Of a stretch of 64,000 nucleotides of DNA, positions 12,037-13,268 are shown piece by piece. The DNA comes from Deltaproteobacteria bacterium (GTDB lineage: Bacteria; Myxococcota; Kuafuiibacteriia; Kuafuiibacteriales; Kuafuiibacteriaceae). The stretch covers positions 46,880 through 110,879 of the forward strand of contig JAVJQW010000012.1 in the NCBI GenBank assembly GCA_040218735.1, given 5' to 3'. Both the position numbers and the translations under genes were made by a program. The notes under the pieces were generated by a model. That model did not search any database. It was not told the origin of the DNA and worked only from the letters and a program-made list of their open reading frames with translations. Within the stretch, counting starts at the first letter, position 1. Every line of letters begins with the position of its first letter.

Positions 12037-13268
12037 CTACCGGCACTGCGTATCGAGGCGCACGACCTCCACCGTGTGTTCGACCGCCGGGGACCCCGCG
12101 TAGTTGAACGCGACGTACTCCCCGTCGAAGCCGAGCTCCACGGGCGCCCACAGGCGGCCGCAGCACAGGCATGGCGCGCCGGTCCTCCCCACGACGTTCG
12201 GAGCCTCGGGCCGCGACAGGTCCGTGACGCGCACCTCGGTCGTCGGATCGGGGCTCCCGGTGCACGGCAAGTCGGGTGTCGCGTAGTGCACCCAGGCCAG
12301 ACGCGTGCCGACGAGGCGCGGCGCGAAGTAGAAGCCTTCGTCGTCGATGCGTCGATGGGTGCGTTCACCGTCGAAGTAGGTGAGGTGTGTACCGAGCGCC
12401 GGGTAGATCTCGCCACGGTCGCTGCACGCGGCGACGGCGCGCCCGCCCGAGGACGACGGCGGACCGCACGGCCCCGCGTCGAGCGTCACGACCCTGCGCG
12501 TCGCGAGGTCGAGGTGCATGAAGCTGGACCCCGCGAGGTAGAAGACCTGGTCGCCCGTCGACACCACGTTTGTGATGATCTCCGCGCTGCTCACGAGGGT
12601 CTCCATCGGGTCGTTCGGATCCGTCACCATCACCAACGAGGACCCCGCGCGACCGCGCAACGCGTAGAACAACCGGTCGTCGGTCACCGCGACCGAACCG
12701 ACCTGCCCGAACGGGAGGACCGCGAGGTTCCCGTCGCGCCACCACCTCAGATCACCGCCGATGTGATACGCGACGCCGTTGGCGCTCACGCGCTGCGGGA
12801 CACCGCCCTCGAAGGACACCGTCAGGTTCGGACGCTCGTCGTCGTCTCCCAGCGCCTCGACGAGCGTCTGCGTAGCGTTGACGTGTCGCCCCTGCCAGAT
12901 CTCGTAGCGATCCGAGCCCCCGCCAACACAAAGGTCCCTTCGCGACCGCCCAAGACGAACGCGTCGACGCCCTCGGCCTCGATCCGCTCGCTGGACGTCG
13001 CGAGGTCCCGGTAGATCACCCGGGGCTCGCGCGGTCCGGACGCGACACGCATGAGCAGCTTGCCCGCGTCCACGACCAGCCCGTTCCACCCCGGCCACCC
13101 CGTGTCTTCGACGGACAAGGTGCGCGGCTCCAACCCCGGGATGCACGCGCCCGCGTCGAGCGCGACCGAGGCGTCGCGCGTTCCGTCGAGGCCGTCGAGT
13201 GCATCGGCGACGCACGCCCCGCACGTCAGGGCGGTCGCGAGCGACAGCAGGACACGGGACTTCGACAT
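12037..13268 (-). pseudogene. lipoprotein gene with apparent +/-1 frameshift (or homopolymer sequencing error)
   Basis: A signal peptide/lipobox ORF (MSKSRVLLSLATALTCGAC...) runs in one frame from 13268 down to about 12940. A protein-like continuation (...GGGSDRYEIWQGRHVNATQ...VRLDTQCR) is in another frame from about 12945 to 12037. Both frames are open across a G/C run near 12935-12950. Confidence 0.55.

Follow-up and report, generated by a model that had tools for sequence, protein, structure and literature searches.

Poly-G/C contingency loci, for example surface-protein genes of Neisseria, Campylobacter and Helicobacter, are known chiefly from tracts of 7-8 nt or longer, and programmed -1 frameshifting is known from systems such as dnaX and the IS3-family transposases. 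A third class of broken reading frame is the homopolymer-indel pseudogene, labelled 'frameshifted' by PGAP and similar annotation pipelines. Here we describe a predicted lipoprotein gene that is divided between two reading frames at a short G run in a 64-kb stretch of DNA, referred to as the window herein, and that is very probably a young pseudogene.

On the minus strand of the window, the ATG at 13268 opens a predicted lipoprotein signal, and its frame closes at 12822 after an R/S/T-rich tail. A second minus-strand frame, which ends ...VRLDTQCR at the stop codon 12039-12037, is open across the lipoprotein region. This -1 frame is the 3' end of a 1160-codon antisense ORF (12037..15519) that shadows ppc, the antisense strand of which carries its stop-free extension. 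Both frames, and the identity of the second with the long antisense ORF, had been recognized in a preliminary description of this DNA and were borne out by our reading of the ORFs. In public annotation the locus appears as two 'hypothetical proteins', P0004 (148 aa) and P0003 (260 aa, start GTG 12819). The ADH-like gene begins 32 nt past the stop of the lipoprotein gene; its coordinates were converted from contig L004, and the ADH_N_2/ADH_zinc_N domains were found in the called genes of L001, L002, L004 and L008. A scan of 11900-13450 for promoters and terminators found none. Features of the locus are listed in the table.

Table. Features of the split lipoprotein gene and its neighbours (window coordinates).
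Feature	Position	Strand	Basis	Remarks
N-terminal coding segment, codons 1-117	12918..13268	-	ORF, GC3, tblastn, alignment with P0001 and P0002	ATG 13268-13266; signal peptide and first ~1.5 propeller blades; base 12918 is common to codon 117 and the C-terminal segment
Predicted lipoprotein signal peptide MSKSRVLLSLATALTCGAC	13212..13268	-	Direct reading	Predicted lipidated Cys19, codon 13214-13212
G5 homopolymer (C5 on the + strand), site of the 1-nt deletion	12917..12921	-	DNA alignments	
C-terminal coding segment, codons 118-410 in the -1 frame (12918-12040) and TAG 12039-12037	12037..12918	-	GC3; colinear with residues 118-410 of P0001, P0002 and P0086	
Junction of the full-length product				...FVLAGGSDRYEIW...; spanning peptide FVLAGGSDRYEIWQGR
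Out-of-frame tail of the truncated 148-aa product, ARIATRSGRGDTSTLRRRSSRRWETTTSVRT	12822..12917	-		Ends at TGA 12824-12822; peptide ARIATRSGRGDTSTLR belongs to the truncated product
GTG, Val151 of the intact protein	12817..12819	-		2 nt past the TGA (TGA cg GTG)
ppc (PEP carboxylase, 919 aa), divergent upstream neighbour	13324..16083	+	Pfam PEPcase on syntenic genes	
Zinc-type alcohol dehydrogenase-like gene (335 aa), downstream neighbour	10997..12004	-	ADH_N_2/ADH_zinc_N	

Beyond ppc, two small conserved genes that are called in all relatives lie at 16121-16375 (plus strand, 84 aa) and 16311-16736 (minus strand, 141 aa). They are convergent, with 3' ends that overlap by ~65 nt, and neither had a Pfam match.

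In this window of 69% GC, GC3 was 0.90-0.97 in the first frame down to ~12980 and 0.83-1.00 in the -1 frame from ~12920 onward. The coding signal changes frame between ~12980 and 12920, after codon 117, and the 148-aa ORF ends in 31 residues that are read out of frame and have low GC3. The sole homopolymer in this zone is the G5 run (context TTGGCGGGGGCTCGG), part of a 'ggcggggg' stretch at 12924-12917. The preliminary description had correctly pointed to a G run as the place of the switch and had put it at 12935-12950, some 15-25 nt off. Insertion of one G into the G5 run yielded a protein of exactly 410 aa, the approximate length that had been proposed for a single gene; it aligned end-to-end, over 100% of its length, with P0001 (410 aa, 87% identity) and P0002 (409 aa, 76% identity), both of which are uninterrupted and syntenic. 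When an intact homologue was searched against the window with tblastn, two HSPs in different frames were recovered: aa 1-117 at 13268-12918, with 98% identity to the intact P0086, and aa 106-410 at 12954-12040. The two parts are thus colinear with an intact homologue and are joined by a single 1-nt gap. The correct junction peptide is ...VDAFVLGGREGTFVLAG|GSDRYEIWQ...; the peptide quoted in the preliminary description, 'VDAFVLGGGSDRYEIWQ', was a mis-join that skipped nine residues (REGTFVLAG) between the similar motifs VLGG and VLAGG.

The genes for P0001 and P0002 share the neighbourhood of the window gene, with ppc divergent upstream and with the ADH-like gene, a CBS-domain gene and further common genes downstream. 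Together with P0086, they lie uninterrupted between ppc and the ADH-like gene, and on all four related contigs (L001, L002, L003 and L008) the lipoprotein gene occupies one frame. L001 reads GCG GGG GGC (G6) where the window has GCGGGGGC (G5); the aligned DNA at the site is GCGGGGGGC in L001, GGCGGGGGGCTCGG in L008 and GGCGGGGGCTCGG in the window. In the intact allele the G6 tract spans codons 116-118, and L002 has ACC ACC GGC at the site, with no G run.

The closest intact relative, P0086, is a 410-aa protein from the Logan assembly of an unrelated run (DRR530892) and belongs to the 90% identity cluster of P0003. It differs from the repaired window protein at 3 residues (99.3% identity), and its junction, ...FVLAGGSDRYEIWQ..., is exactly that predicted from the repair. 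Its contig, L008, is 99.14% identical to the window (23268..2037) over 21.2 kb, and in a global alignment G6 versus G5 was the single length difference in those 21.2 kb. The two alleles of the gene are separated by 8 substitutions. Polarized with L001 as the outgroup, the window carries A112T, Q305H and two synonymous changes as derived states, and L008 carries R109L and a further two synonymous ones. Since G6 and the intact frame are common to L008 and L001, the intact gene is ancestral and the window lineage lost one G very recently.

Two further observations concern sequence differences near this site. Three of the nine differences between the window and L008 fall within 27 nt (12917-12943): the loss of a G at 12921-12917, A112T at 12935 and R109L at 12943. 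These arose on separate lineages, and a local mutational hotspot or chance could account for the cluster. There is also a second homopolymer length difference at window position 13283, between ppc and the lipoprotein gene and 15 nt upstream of the ATG at 13268, where the minus strand reads C5 in the window, C6 in L001 and CCTCCCC in L002.

We found G5 in six contigs that are 100% identical to the window (L004, L005, L007, L009, L010 and L011) and also in L006/L012, which carry 4 SNPs in 8.4 kb. The sources are contigs of four NCBI MAGs, two Logan assemblies and one 11.52-Mb JGI contig. Identical contigs come from MAG GCA_040222965.1, from the Logan assemblies SRR26209547 and SRR26209228 and from the JGI metagenome 3300058926 (the 11.52-Mb contig); the slightly differing MAG is GCA_040220335.1. 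Each of the two protein fragments is carried by four NCBI protein accessions. The reads of SRR26209547 are Illumina NovaSeq PE150 and sample the metagenome of a non-axenic cyanobacterium, Coleofasciculus sp. CHI, and Table S2A of the same study lists a MAG of class Deltaproteobacteria with a size of 11.6 Mb, a GC content of 0.69 and 257x coverage (PMC11785472), which we infer to be the NCBI MAG record. Most of the G5 assemblies may derive from one clonal strain present across culture-collection cyanobacterial cultures, in which case they are independent data sets and not necessarily independent populations.

The window as a whole matches an uncultured 'Deltaproteobacteria' MAG of ~11.6 Mb and 69% GC from non-axenic cultures of Coleofasciculus, a marine mat cyanobacterium. 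A Deltaproteobacteria 16S amplicon from these Coleofasciculus cultures, which may or may not belong to the MAG, is only 85.75% identical to the nearest named species. Between the window and L006, a contig of a MAG, there are three A/T changes at 8553, 8559 and 8565, exactly 6 nt apart within a gene for a 627-aa BNR/sortilin-like protein, and repeat-region variation or an assembly artefact could account for these.

The lipoprotein had no family match in Pfam or NCBIfam. Only one family member matched Pfam MliC (E = 0.003), with 17.9 bits where the cut-off is 22, and this match was discarded. A profile search of 1.84 billion representative proteins returned 81 relatives at E <= 0.001, and the family (P0001, P0002 and P0005-P0083), counted as representatives at 50% identity, has ~81 members, the majority of them single ORFs with lengths of about 370-480 aa. 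A profile search of a word-indexed database returned 5 proteins, the family alignment recovered no relative when run against GTDB species genomes, and a sequence search of the PDB gave only non-significant matches to tricorn propellers (E = 0.6). For distant members, only short contigs of 1.8-4.4 kb were recovered. In an alignment of 26 members, a cysteine column is shared at the end of the N-terminal hydrophobic segment, and 18 of the 26 match a PS51257-like lipobox pattern, as does P0001. The window signal (MSKSR-VLLSLATALT-CGA-C19) misses this pattern by one position, with Cys at -3. Several cysteines are conserved across the family, including those of a GAPCLCC motif near the C-terminus.

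An AlphaFold model of P0001 built on the 26-sequence alignment consisted of one all-beta domain (pLDDT 82.7, pTM 0.84; a 3-sequence alignment gave pLDDT 39). In this model the lipoprotein folds as a single beta-propeller, probably with eight blades. Residue 117 terminates one strand of the second blade, and the 260-aa ORF would be without the signal peptide and two blades.

With L002 as the outgroup, the branch to the window in the lipoprotein gene had 36.5 nonsynonymous against 30.5 synonymous changes, and the branch to L001 had 18 against 37 (Fisher p = 0.017). The neighbours (10997-17400), seven genes in all, were symmetric (17.5/97.5 versus 14/104). The nonsynonymous excess was considered as decay after the frameshift and this was rejected; nearly all of that branch is common to the intact L008 allele, so the excess arose before the frameshift and says nothing about decay. 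It points instead to accelerated, lineage-specific evolution of the protein on the branch leading to the window and L008, where the ratio of nonsynonymous to synonymous changes is about twice that on the L001 branch. The window-specific tip, with 2 nonsynonymous and 2-3 synonymous changes besides the deletion, holds too few changes to test.

Taken together, these data make it very likely that the gene, of 410 codons, carries a real, very recent and strain-specific 1-nt deletion and is a young pseudogene. The G6 tract at codons 116-118 was shortened to G5, most plausibly by slippage during replication. Translation from the ATG at 13268 would then quit the native frame after Gly117, add 31 unrelated residues and stop at 12822, giving a 148-aa product with the signal peptide and fewer than two blades. 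The remaining 293 codons (12918-12040) have neither a signal peptide nor a genuine start, and with both fragments in this state the gene is most likely non-functional. Loss of function in the G5 strain would follow naturally if, as modelled, a single-domain propeller is cut in its second blade. Both halves are otherwise undamaged, with no further stops or indels. This would fit a very young lesion and would equally fit a gene still in use; a G5/G6 polymorphism between 99%-identical strains would also be expected of a reversible switch.

The wording of the preliminary description left room for a sequencing error, and an artefact in a genome that truly reads G6, with the gene intact, was considered. 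Homopolymer indels are a classic type of error, and the 11.5-Mb JGI contig probably derives from long reads. Against this, the same G5 recurs in MEGAHIT-based MAGs, in k-mer-based Logan contigs assembled from Illumina NovaSeq reads and in the JGI contig, in total no fewer than seven contigs produced by three or more assembly pipelines. The matching MAG has ~257x coverage, and an Illumina consensus at such depth does not miscall a run of 5-6 nt. The related MAG L001, the accession of which suggests the same submission series, reads G6 at the very same site, and no other coding indel was found in 13 kb compared with L001 or in 21 kb compared with L008. Since G5 recurs across data sets and pipelines, Illumina-based ones included, an assembly error is very unlikely, and at the level of the assemblies the indel belongs to the DNA itself. 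Public MAG annotation offers a different reading, two genuine separate genes of 148 aa and 260 aa, and in all G5 assemblies the two ORFs are indeed called only 2 nt apart. Both P0003 and P0085 begin at the GTG at 12819, which by its context is not a genuine start: direct reading found no SD-like sequence before it, the orthologues read the codon as Val inside the gene, and a 260-aa product that began there would be without a signal peptide. The orthologues and the wider family are single ORFs, the model forms one closed propeller across both parts, and the tail of the 148-aa ORF has the out-of-frame, low-GC3 character described above. The comparison with orthologues, none of which shows two separate genes, already refutes the two-gene reading, to which we give almost no credence; the C-terminal half also has clear homologues, so neither of the findings that the preliminary description had named as fatal to a single split gene was made.

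If the deletion is real, the full-length protein could still be restored from G5 by programmed -1 ribosomal frameshifting or transcriptional slippage at GCG GGG G, the second of the two mechanisms that the preliminary description had offered. Because the base before GGG is also G, a tRNA-Gly in the P site can slip back by one base and still pair perfectly, and the product, ...LAGGSDR..., would equal the intact protein. However, no X XXY YYZ heptamer is present in codons 12960-12822 of the first frame, leaving only a single-codon G GGG site, and the downstream 86 nt have an MFE of -33.4 kcal/mol compared with -30.0 +/- 2.8 for shuffled sequences (z = -1.19), with 23 of 200 shuffles folding as well. 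The only SD-like element upstream is ordinary coding sequence that is also present in unshifted orthologues. A G5 run is far too short for efficient slippage by RNA polymerase. All relatives, including the 99%-identical strain, use one frame and hence have no conserved recoding signal. With no heptamer, no unusual structure and no shift in relatives, programmed recoding is unsupported and we consider it highly improbable, so that of the two proposed mechanisms the 1-nt deletion is the one that stands; spontaneous slippage may occur at a low level, with nothing to suggest that it is used. The tract could alternatively be a reversible slipped-strand switch that turns the lipoprotein OFF (G5) and ON (G6) within populations. 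Several points favour this: strains of 99.1% identity differ in tract length, with no other indel across 21 kb; the encoded lipoprotein is predicted to sit at the surface or in the periplasm; its protein sequence changes faster than those of the neighbouring genes; and neither half of the gene is damaged. Yet the tract, G5 or G6, is shorter than the 7 or more G/C typical of such loci. The 64-kb window holds 18 G/C runs of at least 6 and 74 runs of 5, so the tract is not distinctive, and it is not conserved in the gene either, as L002 has no run at the site. Assemblies of the window strain all carry G5, although a minority G6 subpopulation may exist, and the protein collection holds no intact protein nearer than P0086, with its 3 amino-acid differences. 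We therefore regard phase variation as unlikely, and it is similarly doubtful that G5/G6 is a working short-tract ON/OFF switch of a fast-evolving, cysteine-rich beta-propeller surface lipoprotein. Were that so, G5 would be a reversible OFF phase and not a dead gene.

A young pseudogene at this locus matters mainly for annotation, as what should be one frameshifted gene stands in public MAGs as a pair of unrelated 'hypothetical proteins', 148 and 260 aa long. It is also a case in which a frameshift could be detected by reading the sequence alone, with no tools. If the gene has indeed been lost, it would provide a dated example of a predicted surface lipoprotein being lost very recently, in a bacterium that has a large genome and has been maintained together with cyanobacteria for decades. 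The mechanism would be an ordinary one, with no bearing on an open mechanistic question. The lipoprotein family itself is undescribed; neither Pfam nor NCBIfam has a model for it, and it may deserve to be defined formally as a family.

In its predicted fold, the protein resembles the BamB-type eight-bladed beta-propeller lipoproteins, a resemblance at the level of the fold only; BamB and PQQ-repeat models gave no match in Pfam or NCBIfam. Like dnaX and the IS3-family elements, the G5 allele needs a -1 shift at a homopolymeric, slip-prone site for a full-length product, but unlike them it has no tandem slippery heptamer, no significant stimulatory structure and no conserved shift. With the contingency loci it shares a G-tract change in the 5' part of a surface lipoprotein gene that switches the frame, and a tract length that varies between near-identical strains. 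Here, in contrast, the tract is 5-6 nt long, is absent from the next orthologue and is one of ~90 such runs in 64 kb. The likeness to homopolymer-indel frameshift pseudogenes extends to a single 1-nt indel in a mononucleotide run, halves that are colinear with an intact orthologue in two frames, a strain-specific lesion and the lack of recoding signals. The locus differs from pseudogenes flagged as such in that the public MAG records are unflagged and list two hypothetical proteins, and in that the lesion is exceptionally young, with an intact sister allele only 8 substitutions away across the gene.
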